Of a stretch of 64,000 nt of DNA, positions 6,805 through 20,811 are shown piece by piece. The stretch comes from Shigella phage Sf14, in the sequence record MF327003; one strand, 5' to 3'. The translations under genes were made by a program, and so were the position numbers. Position 1 is the first letter of the stretch. Each line of letters starts with the position of its first letter. The notes under the pieces were generated by a model. It ran no database searches, was not told the origin of the DNA, and was given only the letters and a program-made list of their open reading frames with translations.

Positions 6805-6874
6805 TTTATCTCTCCAATAAAAAAGGGAACCACCTTTCGATAGCTCCCATCATACAAAATTCTAGATATTACTG

Positions 6875-7468
6875 TCAAGTATATTTTCTAGGCAGTAACT
6901 TACTTTTTCTGCTTCGAACATCTTCAAGGATAGCTATGAAGTCATCAGAAGCACCCTTCCAAGGGCTGAAGTTTGGGATATGTTGACGAATAGCTTCAAT
7001 AATCGTCTTCATACCTGTGTTCTTCATCCACCAATCTGAGCTTGAGGCAGTCATAACAAAGAACTGCTCATCATCGGTTAAGATGACCTCTTTAGTGAAT
7101 GGGGAGGTGTACGTGGTGATAACTGAACCACCATTCATGTAATATGTACGCTTGTGGACTTTATCAAGCATATCATGTAGGTCACCAAACAGCTTCACAA
7201 CCTCTTGGTGGTTAATGTCTTTCTCAAGGTCTAAACGGTACTTCAGAAGTGCTTCATCAACTTCTTTAGATGAGAACTTAAAGTACTGCACATCTTCAAT
7301 GATACATGCAGAGATGTTGTTCACATCCATAGTCAATTTGACAACTTTTGCTGGTGAGTTAATGTTTGGCTGGAACGCAGCAAGCACACCCTGAACATTA
7401 CCGTAGTGTTGGACTAATGCAACTTGTGGAGAATCAACTCCACCATTTTCTTTAATGTTTACACCCAT
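6875..7468 (-). CDS. hypothetical protein (197 aa)
   Basis: ORF track. Confidence 0.6.
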   Translation of the reverse strand: MGVNIKENGGVDSPQVALVQHYGNVQGVLAAFQPNINSPAKVVKLTMDVNNISACIIEDVQYFKFSSKEVDEALLKYRLDLEKDINHQEVVKLFGDLHDMLDKVHKRTYYMNGGSVITTYTSPFTKEVILTDDEQFFVMTASSSDWWMKNTGMKTIIEAIRQHIPNFSPWKGASDDFIAILEDVRSRKSKLLPRKYT

Positions 7469-7469
7469 A

Positions 7470-7820
7470 CTATAACTTCCTCACTAAATACTTTTTAAGT
7501 GGTGTCTTCGGTTTTTCAAAGACCTCAATAGAATCTATTTTGATGCCCTCACCACGCATACCTGTGGATTGGTAGATGTAGAACTCAAGCATCCCTATAT
7601 TTTTAGCTGGCATATCATGCTTAACAAAGATGGTCACTGACTCTTCACTTTTAAAGATTACTGTACCGTCTTTATACACAAGCTTATCAGGTTGTTTATA
7701 GTCAAGCATATCAAACATCAGAAATAGTCTTTGCTGACATTTGTCCAGCCTTGATGACAGGGCTTCTTGTATATCTGCGAAATTCTTATAAACAACGATG
7801 TGGAGCTTAAGCATCTGCAT
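7470..7820 (-). CDS. hypothetical protein
   Basis: ORF track; start trimmed to internal ATG (about 7820) to limit overlap with upstream gene. Confidence 0.45.
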   Translation of the reverse strand: MQMLKLHIVVYKNFADIQEALSSRLDKCQQRLFLMFDMLDYKQPDKLVYKDGTVIFKSEESVTIFVKHDMPAKNIGMLEFYIYQSTGMRGEGIKIDSIEVFEKPKTPLKKYLVRKL

Positions 7821-8100
7821 ATTCTCTGACGAAGAAGTAGTTGATTTTGTTATCGGACACCAGAAGGTCATAGCAAGTAATCTCGAACTTATTCTTTTCA
7901 GCATCATAGCTGGTGTATGGCTCAGAAACTTGCTTTGTTGACACTTTTGGGTTATTAGGGTTTAAAAGGCCACCATAAAGTTTCTTAATGGCCTTTGTTG
8001 CCACACTCCAGATAACATCATCAGTGAGTTCTTCGTACAGGTCAAACTCGGCTTCATAGCTGAAGTCATTAATTGGAAAGATAACCTGTACTTTACTCAT
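7807..8100 (-). CDS. hypothetical protein (97 aa)
   Basis: ORF track. Confidence 0.5.
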   Translation of the reverse strand: MSKVQVIFPINDFSYEAEFDLYEELTDDVIWSVATKAIKKLYGGLLNPNNPKVSTKQVSEPYTSYDAEKNKFEITCYDLLVSDNKINYFFVREYADA

Positions 8101-8101
8101 A

Positions 8102-8470
8102 TCAAACTACCTGTGTAACTTGCAACGCTTCTGTTACGGAGATATCACCTACTTTTTCTTCTTTGATGAAGGTGAAGGTTAGAAGAGTTGTCTTCGGAAC
8201 CTCATCTTCCAGAGGTACACCATTAAGTTCATCAAAGATAGCTTGCGTAGTCCAATCTTCTTGACCATCTGGGTAGTGGTAGGTATATAACGGGAAATCA
8301 ACACTACACCAACCGAAAACAGGGCAACCATCTTCATCATCACGTACACGACGTAGCTCATTGTCAGACTTTGTAAAACGAAGAAAAAGCTCCCCATCAC
8401 GTTCATAGATGGAAGCATCATCTAATTCCCGATATGAAGTGTCAACTTTGACTTGAATCTCTTTATTCAT
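8102..8470 (-). CDS. hypothetical protein
   Basis: ORF track; start trimmed to ATG 8470 (MNKEIQ) giving 8-nt overlap. Confidence 0.5.
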   Translation of the reverse strand: MNKEIQVKVDTSYRELDDASIYERDGELFLRFTKSDNELRRVRDDEDGCPVFGWCSVDFPLYTYHYPDGQEDWTTQAIFDELNGVPLEDEVPKTTLLTFTFIKEEKVGDISVTEALQVTQVV

Positions 8471-17145: not shown

Positions 17146-17161
17146 ATTTTAGGAGATTCCT

Positions 17162-17371
17162 ATGAAGCCTTATGGTAGACATGGTAAAGTTGAAATTGCA
17201 AGTTGTGGCTGCTGTGCAGCGCATGATGAAGAAGATTATTACAAATGGCGTACAGACCATCGTAAACGCTTTCTCAGAAGAGATAAGAAGAGAGCTAGAC
17301 AGGAATCTCAAAAGGATATTGCAGAATTAGTTCAAATGGACAGAGCAGCAACCTACGAAGTTGTTAGTTAG
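17162..17371 (+). CDS. candidate small basic Cys-containing protein (69 aa) inside tRNA island
   Basis: AGGAG 7 nt upstream of ATG; 3' end overlaps tRNA-Arg by ~50 nt so may be spurious. Confidence 0.3.
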   Translation: MKPYGRHGKVEIASCGCCAAHDEEDYYKWRTDHRKRFLRRDKKRARQESQKDIAELVQMDRAATYEVVS

Positions 17372-17397
17372 GGGTTCGAACCCTCTATTCTGCACCA
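17321..17397 (+). tRNA. tRNA-Arg (ACG)
   Basis: acceptor GCAGAAT/ATTCTGC perfect, loop CTACGAA, CCA. Confidence 0.7.
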
Positions 17398-17405
17398 AAT
17401 TTAAT

Positions 17406-17481
17406 AGGGGATTAGTTTACAAGGTTAAAACCTCGGTCTTTGAAATCGAAGAAGATGGTTCAATTCCATCATCCCCCGCCA
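17406..17481 (+). tRNA. tRNA-Gln (TTG)
   Basis: anticodon stem TCGGT/ATCGA loop CTTTGAA, weak 1-72 pair and G73, CCA. Confidence 0.65.
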
Positions 17482-17483
17482 AC

Positions 17484-17562
17484 GCTCCATTACTCCAATT
17501 GGCAGAGAGGCCAGATTTAAAATCTGTGTTATGTATCGGTTCGAATCCGATATGGAGTACCA
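17484..17562 (+). tRNA. tRNA with Leu anticodon TAA, short variable arm
   Basis: acceptor GCTCCAT/ATGGAGT, loop TTTAAAA, A73, CCA. Confidence 0.6.
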
Positions 17563-17568
17563 AATATT

Positions 17569-17644
17569 AGCAGTATAGCATAACTGGCAATGCTCCAGCC
17601 TCTGAAGCTGAAAGATTAAGGTTCAAATCCTTATACTGCTGCCA
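17569..17644 (+). tRNA. tRNA-Gln (CTG)
   Basis: acceptor AGCAGTA/TACTGCT perfect, loop CTCTGAA, CCA. Confidence 0.65.
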
Positions 17645-17647
17645 CTT

Positions 17648-17673
17648 CTAAGGGTTCTTACGAGAGTCCTTAA
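17648..17673 (+). ncRNA. hairpin motif copy C with loop GTTCTTACGAG
   Basis: stem TAAGG/CCTTA (compensatory relative to copy A) around identical 11-mer. Confidence 0.45.
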
Positions 17674-17675
17674 AT

Positions 17676-17752
17676 GTGGCCTTATCATAAATGGATAATG
17701 ACCCATACTGTGAACATGGTCTATACGGGTTCGATTCCCGTAGGTCACCCCA
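17676..17752 (+). tRNA. tRNA-His (GTG)
   Basis: loop CTGTGAA, discriminator C73, T-arm ACGGG/CCCGT, CCA; no encoded G-1. Confidence 0.6.
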
Positions 17753-17758
17753 ATTTCA

Positions 17759-17835
17759 TAGCTCAATTAGCTTATATGGTTAAAGCGCGTGTCTGAAAAA
17801 CATGAGAACAGGGTTCAAATCCCGATGGGCTACCA
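17759..17835 (+). tRNA. tRNA-Phe-like (GAA), irregular D-arm/acceptor register
   Basis: anticodon stem CGTGT/ACATG loop CTGAAAA; acceptor pairing ambiguous. Confidence 0.45.
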
Positions 17836-17851
17836 ACTTTATAGGTGCATA

Positions 17852-18586
17852 ATGAAAGAGATGACAGAACAAAGTAAAGAGATTTTTAATCTTCTTAAAA
17901 CTGGTAATGGTTTCTCAAACCCTCTTATTACTGGTGCAGCAGTTCTTGGTGGTACTATAGCTGCCTCTCAATCATTAGTTAACTCAATTAGTTCTGTAAC
18001 AGACCCAGCTACACAACAGATTTTAGTTGCTGCTGGACTGACAACAGCCTTATTAGGAAGCTTCACAACAAGCCTTGGAAGTACAACTTCAACGACAAGT
18101 ACACTTACTGAGTATGGACAAAAGTCTGTAGATGAGTTTTCACAACGTATGCAAGTAGCTAAAGGTTACTCTAACGTTATGGGAGCAGCAGGTGAACAGG
18201 TTGGATGTACACCGTTTAGCGGTATCATGGGCGTAGCTACCGAGTACGGTAATAAAGCGATGGATTTGATTAATACCTCCATAGACGCTGTAAATAGCGT
18301 TCTAAGCGATTTGCAAGATGCAATCGACCAAGGACTAGATACAATCTCTGAACTCGCTACACAGGCCGTTACAGCGATTAATGAGGGTATTGCAAAGATT
18401 ACTGCATATGCTAACGAAGTAACTCAGATGATTGCAGATGAAGCAGCACTGATTGCAGAATATCTGAAAACAAATATTAATGGTTTCCTTGCGAATGTTC
18501 TACCAAGCTGGTTTGATGATTCATGTAAAACTGGTGTGATTGATACTATCGCAACTCCAGAGATGAAAGAAGCTCTGAACAAATAA
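17852..18586 (+). CDS. glycine-zipper membrane protein with helical C-terminal domain (244 aa), embedded in tRNA island
   Basis: start trimmed to ATG 17852 (track start overlaps tRNA); hydrophobic segments LITGAAVLGGTIAAS and ILVAAGLTTALLGSF. Confidence 0.55.
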   Translation: MKEMTEQSKEIFNLLKTGNGFSNPLITGAAVLGGTIAASQSLVNSISSVTDPATQQILVAAGLTTALLGSFTTSLGSTTSTTSTLTEYGQKSVDEFSQRMQVAKGYSNVMGAAGEQVGCTPFSGIMGVATEYGNKAMDLINTSIDAVNSVLSDLQDAIDQGLDTISELATQAVTAINEGIAKITAYANEVTQMIADEAALIAEYLKTNINGFLANVLPSWFDDSCKTGVIDTIATPEMKEALNK

Positions 18587-18587
18587 T

Positions 18588-18680
18588 GGAAGATTAACCC
18601 TAAAAGGTAAGGGAGCAGTTTGCTAAACTGCCAGTAACCGAGAAATCGGCGTACCAGTTCAAGTCTGGTATCTTCCTCCA
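18588..18680 (+). tRNA. tRNA-Ser (GCT), type II
   Basis: acceptor GGAAGAT/ATCTTCC perfect, anticodon stem GCAGT/ACTGC, long variable arm, CCA. Confidence 0.8.
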
Positions 18681-18686
18681 AATTAT

Positions 18687-18762
18687 GTGTCGGTGTCAGA
18701 AATGGTTATGTGCCTGTCTGCAAAACAGGTTTATGAGGGTTCGAGTCCCTTCCGATACTCCA
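18687..18762 (+). tRNA. tRNA-Cys (GCA)
   Basis: anticodon stem CCTGT/ACAGG loop CTGCAAA, CCA. Confidence 0.75.
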
Positions 18763-18794
18763 ATTTATATTAATATCTCTCTCAAAGTTATTAT

Positions 18795-18854
18795 GCCCTG
18801 CTATGAGTATTCTCCCTTTCGCTACCGGAGAGTATTTTTAGACAGGGCTTTTTT
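18795..18854 (+). terminator. nested double-hairpin intrinsic terminator closing the tRNA island
   Basis: inner 9-bp stem + T5; outer GCCCTG/CAGGGC + T6. Confidence 0.7.
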
Positions 18855-18919
18855 ATAGAGTTATACTTTATGGGAAGACCTATACAGTATGTCTCTGGCA
18901 TACATTGTGGTTTCTCCTT

Positions 18920-18943
18920 GACGGTCTCTGCACCGTCTTTTTT
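18920..18943 (+). terminator. intrinsic terminator GACGGT-CTCTGC-ACCGTC + T6
   Basis: perfect 6-bp stem followed by TTTTTT. Confidence 0.7.
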
Positions 18944-18981
18944 CAGGGGAATCACTATAACTTTAATTTTGGAGAAATACA

Positions 18982-19188
18982 ATGAACGAGACTAATGTTT
19001 ACAAAGAACTATATGAAACTCAGAAACAGGCTCAGATGCTTCAAGCAACTGTAATGGCTGTGGCTGAACGTTTAATTGTTGCAACTGGTATTAACCCACA
19101 AGAAGCAACGATGGATAAACTTCTTAATTTAGTAGATGAAAAGTTTGGTGTAGAACCTAAACAGGAATCTGAAGAAGTTTCTGAATAA
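18982..19188 (+). CDS. small acidic protein (68 aa) immediately upstream of large terminase
   Basis: GGAG 8 nt upstream; position suggests packaging-associated role (inference). Confidence 0.5.
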   Translation: MNETNVYKELYETQKQAQMLQATVMAVAERLIVATGINPQEATMDKLLNLVDEKFGVEPKQESEEVSE

Positions 19189-19209
19189 TTCTATTTGCAG
19201 AGGTGCTTA

Positions 19210-20811
19210 ATGGACTTAAATGTTATTAAGCAGAAGCGAGTGGAAGATGTAAGGAAAGTCCTAGCAGGTGAGTTGGGGCTTTCTGAAGAAGTAAAAGATA
19301 TTATCAAATCCTTTGGTAAAGACCCCTCTAAATTCCTTCCAACTCAAATTCTGACTTTATTAAGATACACCCCAGACCAAGTAAGACTCATCTTTAAATT
19401 GATGACTGACAAGAACTATGTAGCTCCACAGCCTGGCTCTCAAGAGGTATTCTTGAACACTAATGCTGACTTGGTACTATATGGTGGTGCTGCTGGTGCT
19501 GGTAAGACTGCCGCCCTATTAATGGACTCACTAAGGTTTATTGAAGACCCAAACTACAATGCTGTTTATTTCCGTCGAAATACAACGCAGTTACAAGGTG
19601 GTCTGTGGCCTGCGGCTAAAAAGTTATTTGGTAAGTTTGGTGGAGTTCCACATGAACAGAAAATGACTATTACTTTCCCTTCTGGAGCAACTATCAAGTT
19701 TACTTATTTGGAACTTGAGAAACACTCAGAAGGTCACCAAGGTATCGAATACTCAGCTATTTATTTCGACGAAGGTACACACTTCTCGGCTTCACAGATT
19801 TCATATCTTCAGACACGTTTACGTTCTGGTGCTGAAGGTGACTCATATATGAAAATCTCAATGAACCCAGACAGAGACCACTTTATTTATGATTGGGTAG
19901 AACCTTTCCTAGATGATGCTGGATATCCAGACCCAGAGAAGTGTGGTAGGATTCGTTGGTATGTTATGAATGATGGTGTCATGGTTTCTGATTGGGATAG
20001 AGATAAAATTCTTGAAATGTTCCCTCTTGAGATTCCTCAAACATATACCTTTATTTCCGGTACAATTGATGACAACCCTATTCTAGATTTCCTTGAACCT
20101 AAGTATCGTGGTAAATTAGAAAACAACACACCAGTTAACGTTGCACGTTTACGTTTTGGTAACTGGAAAGCTCGTGCTGAAGGTTCAAACTACTGGCAAA
20201 GACAATGGTGTGAAATTGTTGATAGTGTTCCAGCAGATGTATTTGACGTAAGAGCATGGGACTTAGCAGCAACATTACCTTCTGAGGTTAACCCTAACCC
20301 TGACTGGACAGCAGGTGTTAAAATGGGTAAATCTAAAAAAGATGGTTGCTATTATGTGATTAACGTAGTAAGATTTAGAGATAGACCTTCTGGAGTTGAA
20401 ACACAAATTAACCAAACTGCTGAAGGTGATGGTAAGCGCACAGGTATTTTTATCCCTCAAGACCCCGGCGCTGCTGGTAAATCCTACGCAACATCCCTTA
20501 TTAGAAAACTTGCTGAGAAAGGTTTCCGAGCAAGAGCTAAACCAACAAATAAAGATAAAGTCACCCGTTTTGCGGGTTTCTCTGCTGCTTCTGAGGCAGG
20601 ACTTGTCAAAATTGTTAGAGGCTCTTGGAATGAAGCATATTTTCAAGAACTAGAAGGTTTTTGTGGTGATGGTCGTACTAAGGATGACCAAGTGGATGCG
20701 ACCAGTGATGCTTTCAACAGTCTAAACGAAGTTAAACTATTCAAGCCACCTTCGATGGGTGCTCATACAGATATTATGAAGAGTAATCCATATCAGGGGC
20801 TAAGACGCTAA
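19210..20811 (+). CDS. terL: terminase large subunit
   Basis: Walker A in LYGGAAGAGKTAAL; start moved from TTG 19195 to ATG 19210 with GAGGTG upstream. Confidence 0.85.
   Translation: MDLNVIKQKRVEDVRKVLAGELGLSEEVKDIIKSFGKDPSKFLPTQILTLLRYTPDQVRLIFKLMTDKNYVAPQPGSQEVFLNTNADLVLYGGAAGAGKTAALLMDSLRFIEDPNYNAVYFRRNTTQLQGGLWPAAKKLFGKFGGVPHEQKMTITFPSGATIKFTYLELEKHSEGHQGIEYSAIYFDEGTHFSASQISYLQTRLRSGAEGDSYMKISMNPDRDHFIYDWVEPFLDDAGYPDPEKCGRIRWYVMNDGVMVSDWDRDKILEMFPLEIPQTYTFISGTIDDNPILDFLEPKYRGKLENNTPVNVARLRFGNWKARAEGSNYWQRQWCEIVDSVPADVFDVRAWDLAATLPSEVNPNPDWTAGVKMGKSKKDGCYYVINVVRFRDRPSGVETQINQTAEGDGKRTGIFIPQDPGAAGKSYATSLIRKLAEKGFRARAKPTNKDKVTRFAGFSAASEAGLVKIVRGSWNEAYFQELEGFCGDGRTKDDQVDATSDAFNSLNEVKLFKPPSMGAHTDIMKSNPYQGLRR

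Follow-up and report, generated by a model that had tools for sequence, protein, structure and literature searches.

Two protein-coding genes within the tRNA island of Shigella phage Sf14: a DUF7217 gene packed between tRNAs and a small reading frame that runs into tRNA-Arg

The thrU-tufB operon of Escherichia coli is a bacterial example of a transcript that carries tRNAs and an mRNA together. Mitochondrial polycistronic transcripts are reportedly divided by 'tRNA punctuation', a model said to go back to Ojala et al. in 1981. In the lytic myovirus T4, the segB gene, which encodes a GIY-YIG homing endonuclease, is located inside the tRNA gene region (PMC2330249). The locus described here, from Shigella phage Sf14, resembles that of segB in that a lytic myovirus has protein-coding ORFs scattered among tRNA genes of one orientation. 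Unlike segB, however, the larger of its two ORFs (ORF A, 17852..18586, + strand) is a fixed core gene with conserved tRNA flanks and not a mobile endonuclease, and the smaller (ORF B, 17162-17371, + strand) contains no nuclease domain. Similar to the genes of the mitochondrial and thrU-tufB systems, ORF A is abutted by tRNAs, with 1 nt on its 3' side and 16 nt on its 5' side. A difference is that the phage mRNA retains an ordinary Shine-Dalgarno leader and an intact stop codon; its processing is a prediction.

The window, which is the entire 64,000-nt stretch of Sf14 DNA that was analysed (sequence record MF327003), belongs to a Mooglevirus, a Felix O1-like myovirus, and its DNA is ~99% identical to that of Shigella phages Sf13, Sf15 and Sf17. 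A search for related loci returned only close relatives. The tRNA island (14151..18762, + strand) contains 25 tRNA genes detected by ARAGORN, all on the + strand, and is interrupted by ORF B and ORF A, both of which are already annotated in Mooglevirus genomes. An earlier note on this DNA described the two ORFs as protein-coding genes nested within the island. Its coordinates were all correct, and codon-position bias and low dN/dS in both frames substantiate that description. The islands of relatives also hold HNH and PD-(D/E)XK genes. A promoter-like site of the sigma-70 type (14094..14123, + strand; TTGACA-18-TATAGT plus a TG extension, with 11 of 12 positions matching) ends 27 nt upstream of the first tRNA. 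Analogously, terminator t42 of Felix O1, which contains TTGACA, is located directly upstream of the first tRNA (PMC3185647). At the other end, a putative intrinsic terminator (hairpin at 18795..18854, + strand; -28.1 kcal/mol, z = -6.3, followed by U6) begins 33 nt after tRNA-Cys and would close the tRNA operon; a second terminator-like hairpin is found at 18920-18937. Since the promoter-like site and the strong hairpin bracket both ORFs, ORF A and ORF B would, judging from these signals, most likely be co-transcribed with the tRNAs. Overall, we consider it likely that both are genuine phage genes of the tRNA operon, ORF A encoding a soluble helical protein and ORF B carrying a tolerated tRNA-derived tail. 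The finding is an ordinary one of low novelty, and its value is mainly for annotation.

ORF A encodes a protein of 244 amino acids, with an ATG at 17852 and a stop codon that ends at 18586. The protein is acidic, lacks histidine and is predicted to form an all-helical bundle. Its score for the Pfam family DUF7217 (PF23854) is 282.9 bits (cut-off 29), with residues 7-242 covering positions 1-237 of the 238-position model, and it matches phrog_2114 with an E-value of 2.8e-109. FelixO1p100, ORF47 of VpaE1, gp102 of Sf15 and gp166 of Kuttervirus Sajous1 are members of the same DUF7217/phrog_2114 family. Shared features include the 244-aa length, two cysteines (C119 and C225), a conserved LPxWFxDxCK motif and a position at the 3' end of the island upstream of terL. 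Across 27 sequences, down to 38% identity, C119, C225, L217, P218, W220, F221, D223 and K226 are invariant, and both cysteines also align in the Kuttervirus homologue. The earlier note had suggested conservation of both frames in related phages as a check, and this was borne out. The 244 codons of ORF A are gap-free in 12 phages, with variable sites at codon positions 1, 2 and 3 numbering 64, 28 and 175 and a dN/dS of ~0.10, and the ORF B frame is open in all relatives.

Matches to ORF A were found by tblastn in 583 phage records from the Ounavirinae and Ackermannviridae. In Sf14 its neighbours are tRNAs, a 68-aa ORF and terL, and the order DUF7217, small ORF, TerL and Mu-like portal is preserved at 38-42% identity. 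In Kuttervirus, the DUF7217 gene is downstream of the head module. By its sequence, ORF A is a core DUF7217 protein of the Ounavirinae and Ackermannviridae, that is, of two enterobacterial phage families (Felix O1-like and Vi1-like) used in therapy and typing. A literature search for 'DUF7217' found no papers. The labels attached to family members in databases ('membrane protein', 'structural protein' and '(predicted) receptor-binding protein') are unsupported, and the function is best treated as unknown. A Felix O1 fragment (UniProt O80222) carries the label 'Red protein', for which a literature search found no source.

The packing of ORF A between tRNAs, first noticed in Sf14, is conserved well beyond it. 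tRNA-Phe ends at 17835, leaving a 16-nt leader (17836..17851, + strand) that includes AGGTG at 17843-17847, and tRNA-Ser(GCT) (18588..18680, + strand) begins 1 nt past the stop codon, exactly as the earlier note had stated. The length of the leader (15-17 nt) and its GGTG core are conserved in Mooglevirus, Suspvirus and Felixounavirus. In 13 Ounavirinae, 15-17 nt separate the preceding tRNA from the start of the gene, and the gap between the stop codon and tRNA-Ser is 1-3 nt. Among more distant relatives, the leader is 16-18 nt in Rouille, L056 and L057, the L056 value being measured from a tRNA-like 3' end judged by eye, and three lineages with a DUF7217 of 38-42% identity have gaps of 1, 3 and 8 nt. 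Thus, a coding sequence abutted by tRNAs, the mark of tRNA punctuation, was found across lineages for DUF7217 down to ~40% identity. In L054 and L055, a 69-aa ORF is located between tRNA-His and the DUF7217 gene; ORF B is not related to the 69-aa ORF found ahead of DUF7217 in distant lineages. Since ORF A is flanked by tRNAs, the ends of its mRNA are expected to come from tRNA processing, and RNase P together with tRNA 3' processing would set them. This deeply conserved tRNA-gene-tRNA packing is a tractable system for studying the effects of tRNA processing on the fate of phage mRNA.

ORF A had been read as a glycine-zipper membrane protein, possibly pore-forming. On this reading, two segments form a transmembrane hairpin or glycine zipper in an integral or pore-forming membrane protein that might act, for example, in superinfection exclusion, as a holin-like or antiholin protein, or as a membrane-perturbing toxin. 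Two uncharged segments rich in Gly, Ala, Ser and Thr are indeed present (residues 25-43 and 57-75), with Kyte-Doolittle 19-residue maxima of 1.49 and 1.62 respectively, and the stretch from residue 23 to 86 is nearly devoid of charged residues. Several GenBank records label the homologue a 'putative membrane protein', and Felix O1 was reported to have no recognizable holin-lysin cassette (PMC3185647). However, the hydrophobicity of the segments is borderline. They barely reach the classical threshold, and do so only in the Felix O1/Moogle/Susp clade, whereas the maximum stays below it in the Kolesnikvirus and Ackermannviridae homologues (0.93-1.41 overall, Erwinia phage Rouille having 0.93 and the Ackermannviridae 1.0-1.4). 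In the latter family, it is the C-terminal helices that have the hydropathy peak, and charged D, E and K residues occur in the N-terminal region. No hydrophobic segment of transmembrane length was found family-wide in DUF7217. The GxxxG-like spacing stands only in its loosest form. Small-xxx-small triplets start at residues 29, 30, 33, 37, 62, 66 and 103, but the glycine-zipper motif (G/A/S)xxxGxxxG is absent from ORF A, as is any GxxxG pair.

The predicted structure is also at odds with a membrane hairpin. AlphaFold2 gave a confident all-helical model (pLDDT 88.6, pTM 0.80) in which both segments are helices of the bundle and a long C-terminal helix spans residues 165-221, the last in agreement with the long helical C-terminal part noticed earlier. 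Holins are ~60-150 aa long, with at least one transmembrane domain, and are usually encoded beside an endolysin or spanin gene, whereas ORF A is 244 aa long and has no adjacent endolysin. No holin matched ORF A in Pfam or PHROG, the sole match in the lysis category being an Rz-like spanin (E = 0.4), and the Pfam matches to Senescence and ApoLp-III were under threshold. The pore-former reading is weak because the segments are borderline hydrophobic here and non-hydrophobic in distant homologues, and we regard an integral or pore-forming protein as improbable. ORF A is probably an acidic helical bundle that is soluble and at most peripherally associated with membranes.

Comparisons with known folds have given little beyond that. 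Structural alignments of ORF A with ApoLp-III-like apolipoproteins, IncA, BAR domains and MLKL/CC four-helix bundles show 3-16% identity, and sequence matches to apolipoprotein and helical-bundle families are below the Pfam thresholds. Since the top structural matches are de novo designed repeats, the resemblance to helical bundles is one of fold class only. A PDB search with the family profile returned coiled-coil noise only (best E = 0.0045, a designed repeat), a BFVD structure search nothing but other DUF7217 models, and NCBIfam and PADLOC searches no significant match. When 1.84 billion representatives were searched exhaustively with hmmsearch, 122 matches were obtained, with no informative domain fusion; the long proteins among them are tape measure or other repetitive helical proteins. 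Residues 127-209 of ORF A have weak profile matches to tape measure (TMP) repeats (PHROG E ~0.005), and TMP_3-containing proteins are among the distant hmmsearch matches. Tape measure proteins are at least 600 aa long, whereas ORF A has 244 aa and lies outside the tail module; in Felix O1, gp67 has already been proposed for this role. The resemblance to TMP repeats stems from composition or coiled coils.

As to its role, our tentative guess, held at somewhat less than even chances, is that ORF A is a low-copy protein associated with morphogenesis or the virion, and not a membrane pore. The Sajous1 homologue gp166, which matches DUF7217 at 6.5e-99 and is 30% identical to ORF A, was detected with 8 spectra in CsCl-purified Kuttervirus virions (PMC10892097, Table 6), although its authors considered low spectral counts to be possible contamination (PMC10892097). 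The homologue was not reported among 17 virion proteins of Felix O1 (PMC3185647), it keeps the label 'hypothetical' in VpaE1 despite the identification of 22 virion proteins in that phage (PMC4690856, supplement), and the Sf14 paper does not list ORF A in its table of structural proteins (PMC11821841). These absences are consistent with a host-directed, non-structural takeover or anti-defence factor that is expressed early from a host-type promoter, its proximity to head genes being coincidental. The unit that contains ORF A has a promoter-like site close to the sigma-70 consensus and a predicted terminator of its own, apart from the terL-portal unit. DUF7217 is common to two phage families with overlapping hosts and unrelated head modules, a distribution that speaks against a role specific to the capsid and is equally compatible with a host-directed one. 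Furthermore, the tRNA islands of relatives are hot spots for accessory cargo, and in one metagenomic relative the anti-Gabija gene Gad2 is located ~2 kb downstream of DUF7217. However, ORF A is universal, syntenic and free of indels, with a dN/dS of 0.1, unlike typical fast-turnover anti-defence genes; it has no significant match in PADLOC or to known anti-defence families, and the homologue was found in purified Kuttervirus virions. The RT-PCR timing table for Felix O1 is too noisy to date the gene and is not informative. Such a host-directed factor is considered possible but unlikely.

A small terminase was rejected as a candidate for ORF A because the Ackermannviridae have their own TerS/TerL pair elsewhere. 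A scaffold was likewise rejected: the weak T4_CASP match (E = 0.018) is below threshold, and the Ackermannviridae already have a gp22-like scaffold. No relative of ORF A was found in solved virion structures, the PP35 and EspM4VN papers contain no usable proteome entry for the homologue, and no Felixounavirus transcriptome was found in the literature.

ORF B, the second gene, encodes 69 aa and is a full-length member of phrog_10765 (E = 1.4e-49, residues 1-69 covering positions 1-70 of the 70-position model). The strong ribosome-binding site attributed to it is present. An AGGAG (17151..17155, + strand) lies 6 nt before the ATG and is invariant in all 14 aligned sequences, that is, the window and 13 relatives. 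The body of the gene (17162..17320, + strand) comprises 53 codons, compared with 54 in relatives, a private in-frame 3-nt deletion in the window having removed Gly23. It has a Cys-rich N-terminus (C-G-C-C-x2-H) followed by an Arg/Lys-rich helix; AlphaFold2 returned a single helix of low confidence. Homologues were found by tblastn in 40 phage records, exclusively Mooglevirus and Suspvirus, at 87-99% identity.

The earlier note had left ORF B as either dual-coding or spurious. If it were untranslated, the region 17146-17320 would be conserved as a leader or spacer that constrains processing of the tRNA precursor, or merely by recent common ancestry. Divergence across the region is low (92-99% DNA identity, with just 24 variable sites), homologues are confined to 4 protein clusters among 5.8 billion sequences with no known domain, and the structure model is of low confidence. 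Against this, variable sites in the body at codon positions 1, 2 and 3 number four, four and 16 (16 of 24 at third positions; binomial P = 8.6e-4), and dN/dS is 0.145 in the ORF B frame alone, the remaining two forward frames giving 2.8 and 0.51. The ORF B frame is the sole one of six that is open in all relatives, its ATG, like the AGGAG, is invariant, and the private indel is exactly 3 nt. The body and spacer show no excess RNA structure (z = -0.66). In addition, the 175-nt spacer between tRNA-Leu(CAA) and tRNA-Arg(ACG) has no counterpart in Felixounavirus, which lacks tRNA-Arg(ACG), or in Kolesnikvirus, in which a tRNA-Leu and a tRNA-Arg are 6 nt apart; the spacer is thus not a general requirement of tRNA processing. 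An untranslated ORF B is quite improbable on these grounds. Since its body is under purifying selection, ORF B is not spurious. Its product is small, basic and Cys-rich and occurs only in Mooglevirus and Suspvirus.

The 3' end of ORF B overlaps tRNA-Arg(ACG), as had been noted, and the overlap amounts to 51 nt (17321-17371). The tRNA (17321..17397, + strand) was detected by ARAGORN and is bona fide, with an Rfam match at 17321-17394 that scores 56 bits (gathering score 29). The ORF B tail (17321..17371, + strand) consists of 16 sense codons and a TAG taken from the 5' two-thirds of the tRNA, the 5' end of which coincides with the boundary between codons 53 and 54. A different allele of 80 aa stops 1 nt before the tRNA and is un-overlapped. 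The length difference between the long and short alleles is exactly 82 nt. This segment has TGC at each edge and is the same in every long allele; blastn finds it only in Silverhawkium. The overlap arises most simply from this 82-nt length change. Relative to the 80-aa allele kept in Silverhawkium, an 82-nt deletion would have joined the ORF B frame to tRNA-Arg, although an insertion may instead be the source of the difference. The short form is the majority in both Mooglevirus and Suspvirus. If the frame was joined to tRNA-Arg by deletion, the last 16 codons are merely tRNA read as protein.

Such an overlap could instead be a selected dual-coding or regulatory device, in which the C-terminus is required or translation controls the maturation of tRNA-Arg. 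The overlapping allele is present in 39 of 40 GenBank records and forms a cluster of 80 sequences, compared with six in two long-form clusters. All overlapping forms are open to the same TAG, and the tRNA begins exactly at a codon boundary. However, the TAG is part of tRNA sequence that does not vary among the aligned relatives, and conservation of the stop is to be expected regardless. Variable sites in the tail number three, three and one at codon positions 1, 2 and 3, that is, six of seven fall at position 1 or 2 and are non-synonymous, whereas those in predicted tRNA-Arg stems keep the pairing in every case; there is no sign of coding constraint. The non-overlapping allele has a wholly different 27-aa C-terminus and occurs on two different N-terminal backgrounds. 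The lack of a coding signature in the tail, the link of the overlap to an indel and the survival of the 80-aa allele together argue against selected dual coding, which is judged very improbable. The tRNA-derived tail would be tolerated, not selected. If the length change was a deletion, ORF B is a clean natural case of a deletion grafting tRNA sequence onto a protein, the new tail evolving under the constraints of a tRNA and not of a protein.

The position of the tRNA within ORF B would also affect its message. RNase P cutting at 17320/17321 would strip the stop codon, and full-length ORF B would then come only from unprocessed transcripts. A bolder proposal, to which we give little chance, is that across the locus tRNA processing and translation compete on one transcript. 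If true, the ORF A message would be cut by RNase P to a 3' UTR of 1 nt and the ORF B message would become non-stop, protein output would be inversely tied to tRNA maturation, and the phage would have its own form of mitochondrial tRNA punctuation, serving as a regulatory switch. The conserved placement of DUF7217 between tRNAs and the joining of ORF B to tRNA-Arg would then exceed mere genome compaction. A separate idea, given equally little chance, is that DUF7217 is a new class of amphitropic helical-bundle protein, travelling within or alongside the virion and acting on the envelope of the host.

Despite its overlap with tRNA-Arg, ORF B deserves to be retained as a gene in annotation. Annotation pipelines omit it inconsistently.

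The protein gene at 17852-18586 (+) of the window, ORF A, encodes a 244-aa protein of the DUF7217 family. It starts 16 nt past the end of tRNA-Phe (17835), has an AGGTG motif within its leader at 17843-17847, and a single nucleotide separates its stop codon from tRNA-Ser(GCT), whose first base is 18588; the earlier note had placed it correctly. The product matches DUF7217 over its full length (282.9 bits against a cut-off of 29) and is included in phrog_2114. By tblastn, it was matched in 583 phage records, with identities of 80-100% in Felixounavirus, Mooglevirus and Suspvirus, ~45% in Erwinia Kolesnikvirus and ~30% in Ackermannviridae (Kuttervirus, Limestonevirus, Agtrevirus and others). All 12 Ounavirinae copies compared retain 244 codons without gaps, with a median dN/dS of 0.10 and 64, 28 and 175 variable sites at codon positions 1, 2 and 3 respectively. 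Residues C119 and C225 and the LPxWFxDxCK motif near the C-terminus do not vary in homologues as distant as 38% identity, and the two cysteines can still be aligned in the protein from Kuttervirus. The gene is real, and its frame is conserved in relatives. A DUF7217 profile search of 1.84 billion representative proteins returned only 122 clusters, most of them single-domain proteins of 220-300 aa. The long matches were rejected as tape measure or other repetitive helical proteins that share a coiled-coil composition. In one database cluster (P0001, 253 aa, 134 member sequences), the protein begins upstream, in the interval 17825-17851 of the window, at an ATG within tRNA-Phe; the conserved AGGTG and the 244-aa start in the other annotations compared suggest that the extension is an artefact of annotation.

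The tight packing of ORF A between tRNA genes is also conserved, to a depth that the present comparison adds. In 13 Ounavirinae loci, the Shine-Dalgarno leader after tRNA-Phe measures 15-17 nt and the spacer from the stop codon to tRNA-Ser 1-3 nt. In three lineages with DUF7217 proteins of 38-42% identity, the stop codon lies 1, 3 and 8 nt from tRNA-Ser(GCT), with junctions at 2560-2562 (L054), 7747-7751 (L055) and 7723-7732 (L056); in the window, tRNA-Ser(GCT) occupies 18588-18680. A leader of 16-18 nt after a tRNA or tRNA-like 3' end is also found in Erwinia phage Rouille, L056 and the metagenomic contig L057, and wherever a tRNA directly precedes DUF7217 the leader is 15-18 nt long and carries a Shine-Dalgarno sequence. 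Judged from these sequence comparisons, the tRNA-DUF7217-tRNA-Ser sandwich is ancient within the subfamily.

The AlphaFold2 model of ORF A, built from a 27-sequence alignment, is confident (pLDDT 88.6, pTM 0.80) and all-helical, with helices that include residues 25-47, 65-94, 96-112, 131-160 and 165-221. Foldseek found no match to this model with E < 0.1 in the PDB, BFVD yielded only other DUF7217 models, and the family profile found no relative among PDB sequences. The earlier note had described two Gly/Ala-rich hydrophobic segments with GxxxG-like spacing and a long helical C-terminal domain, called the product a glycine-zipper membrane protein and likened this architecture to that of small pore-forming or membrane-perturbing proteins. 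Two Gly/Ala/Ser/Thr-rich segments do exist, but their 19-residue Kyte-Doolittle means (1.49 and 1.62) only reach the classical threshold, and they contain no strict GxxxG motif. Hydrophobicity of this level is limited to the Felix O1/Moogle/Susp clade: the hydropathy maximum is 0.93 in the Rouille homologue. In Ackermannviridae it is 1.0-1.4 and located in the C-terminal helices, and the N-terminal region has D, E and K. The pore-former reading thus depends on a marginal, non-conserved feature, which argues against a membrane or pore annotation of DUF7217; a membrane-active role for ORF A is improbable, and the protein is probably a soluble helical bundle.

The second nested gene, ORF B (17162-17371, +), encodes a 69-aa protein. 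The AGGAG site and the 3' overlap with tRNA-Arg(ACG) that the earlier note had reported are both present: AGGAG lies 6 nt upstream of the ATG, and the last 51 nt of ORF B are contained in the tRNA gene (17321-17397), which begins exactly at the junction of codons 53 and 54. ORF B was found by tblastn in only 40 records, all Mooglevirus and Suspvirus, and a search of 5.8 billion proteins gave just four clusters. Its family is phrog_10765, and no Pfam domain was found in it. Felixounavirus lacks both ORF B and tRNA-Arg(ACG), and in Kolesnikvirus a tRNA-Arg directly follows a tRNA-Leu with no intervening ORF. Across 18 loci (14 unique sequences), 16 of the 24 variable sites in the 54-codon body preceding the tRNA are third-position (P = 8.6e-4). 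For the body dN/dS is 0.145, whereas the two other forward frames give 2.8 and 0.51, and its frame is the sole one of six open in every genome compared. The AGGAG and ATG are invariant in these relatives. The window carries a private in-frame deletion of exactly 3 nt (17225-17230, codons 22-23) that removes Gly23, a loss seen in none of 13 compared relatives. The ORF B spacer showed no excess RNA structure (z = -0.66). ORF B is therefore a real gene, conserved in frame, and not spurious, an option that the earlier note had left open. It looks like a small protein with a Cys cluster and an arginine-rich helix, which hints at nucleic-acid binding; this is speculative, and the structure model is of low confidence.

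The 16 sense codons inside tRNA-Arg behave differently from this coding body: only one of their seven variable sites is third-position, and all tRNA stem substitutions keep pairing, one of them by a double compensatory change. A natural allele pair accounts for the overlap. An 80-aa form, with a distinct 27-aa C-terminus and a TAA 1 nt before tRNA-Arg, occurs in Shigella phage Silverhawkium and in several phage genomes that are metagenomic or labelled 'plasmid'. Its difference from the common form amounts to exactly 82 nt and has TGC at each edge. The simplest reading of these sequences is a microhomology-type deletion that fused the ORF B frame to tRNA-Arg. An insertion in the long alleles is a possible alternative, since the 82-nt segment is identical in all of them and matches nothing else, and the short form dominates Mooglevirus and Suspvirus. 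Under deletion or insertion, the overlap is incidental and the protein tail is not what selection preserves, which contradicts the suggestion of dual coding.

ORF A and ORF B appear to be part of the tRNA transcription unit. The island comprises 25 co-oriented tRNA genes (14151-18762; ARAGORN, confirmed by Rfam). Just before the first, tRNA-Pro, lies a predicted sigma-70 promoter close to consensus (TTGACA-18-TATAGT plus a TG extension, 14094-14123), itself preceded by a terminator-like hairpin (13996-14027). Directly after the last, tRNA-Cys, comes a terminator-type hairpin of very high stability (18795-18854; -28.1 kcal/mol, z = -6.3) with U6 behind it. These elements would define the island as its own unit, which appears to sit between a 471-aa ORF (12570-13985), probably the counterpart of a Hoc-like decoration gene by length and position, and terL (19195-20811), separate from the unit of terL and portal (20824 onwards). 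RNase P cleaves at tRNA +1. Cleavage at tRNA-Ser would cut the 3' UTR of the ORF A message down to 1 nt, and cleavage at tRNA-Arg would deprive the ORF B message of its stop codon, exactly after codon 53; that such coupling is used for regulation is very unlikely. Phage tRNA clusters with embedded protein genes are a familiar arrangement, e.g. T4 segB (PMC2330249), and ORF A and ORF B are nested likewise. GenBank records of related phages already annotate both, and known PHROG and Pfam families cover them; they are an ordinary pair of phage genes. Beyond this, the analysis contributes the separation of the coding ORF B body from its non-coding tRNA-derived tail, the long and short alleles behind the overlap, and the case against a membrane or pore label for DUF7217. 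The nesting noticed earlier is confirmed, and its interpretation is partly supported.

In the three lineages where DUF7217 is only 38-42% identical, the gene is still followed, in this order, by a small ORF, TerL, a Mu-like portal, a Gp80-domain protein and an S49 protease. In Kuttervirus, the DUF7217 gene follows the T4-like head module, adjoins a SLOG/YAcAr-domain protein and lies upstream of a gp3-like tail completion gene and uvsY. Virion proteomics of Felix O1 detected 17 proteins, the ORF A homologue not among them (PMC3185647). Mass spectrometry of VpaE1 identified 22 virion proteins, and ORF47, the homologue, is still 'hypothetical' (PMC4690856 supplement); ORF A is likewise absent from the table of structural proteins in the paper on the Sf14 structure (PMC11821841). 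In CsCl-purified particles of Salmonella phage Sajous1, gp166 gave eight spectra, a count resembling known low-copy tail proteins, although the authors warn that low counts are possibly contaminants (PMC10892097). Gp166 was verified as DUF7217 (6.5e-99; 30% identical to ORF A), and its spectra show that a distant homologue is translated. The likeliest role of ORF A, suggested tentatively, is a link to morphogenesis or a low-copy place in the virion; a host-directed early protein is a rather doubtful alternative.

In Sajous1 (L023, 16780-18206), DUF7217 comes after the SLOG/YAcAr-domain protein, which bears the label 'GTP-binding domain', and an ORF of 50 aa. In a 475-aa protein of Salmonella phage 38 (BFVD A0A0N7CDB8), DUF7217 makes up the C-terminal half, and phrog_289, a 500-position profile, has the same architecture; this could reflect a true fusion or an artefact of annotation. 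Directly upstream of terL, the window encodes a 68-aa ORF (18982-19188; phrog_4397). All Ounavirinae examined have a small ORF here, which, matched by position, measures 66-96 aa in distant lineages. To our knowledge, no small terminase is recognized in Felix O1-like phages, which makes the 68-aa ORF a candidate.

Over 17000-19200, the window shares 99% identity with genomes of Mooglevirus (Shigella phages Sf13/Sf15/Sf17, Escherichia phage 3HA14) and 80-90% with >200 Felix O1-like genomes. The compared loci L001, L004, L005, L006 and L009 vary in spacer cargo. Between tRNA-Arg(ACG) and tRNA-Gln (8 nt in the window, 17398-17405), relatives carry an ORF of 75 aa, a DUF7338 protein of 185 aa (named 'holin' in HP1), or both; ahead of tRNA-Leu(TAG) (window counterpart 16239-16491), they hold an HNH or PD-(D/E)XK endonuclease gene. 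None of this cargo is present in the window at these spacers, and the tRNA island is thus an insertion/deletion hot spot. Within the 450-nt Asp-Lys spacer, Rfam scored a tRNA at 15058-15132 (+; 30 bits, gathering score 29) that ARAGORN did not call; the surrounding stretch (14910-15158), several short ORFs in the window, matches an 84-aa ORF of phage ESh21 (64% identity), and the site is probably a decayed tRNA or gene remnant. On L057 (10.8 kb; region 6847-8205), DUF7217 is 59% identical to ORF A and a Gad2 (anti-Gabija) gene lies ~2 kb downstream in place of terL, indicating that the tRNA-island neighbourhood can host anti-defence cargo.
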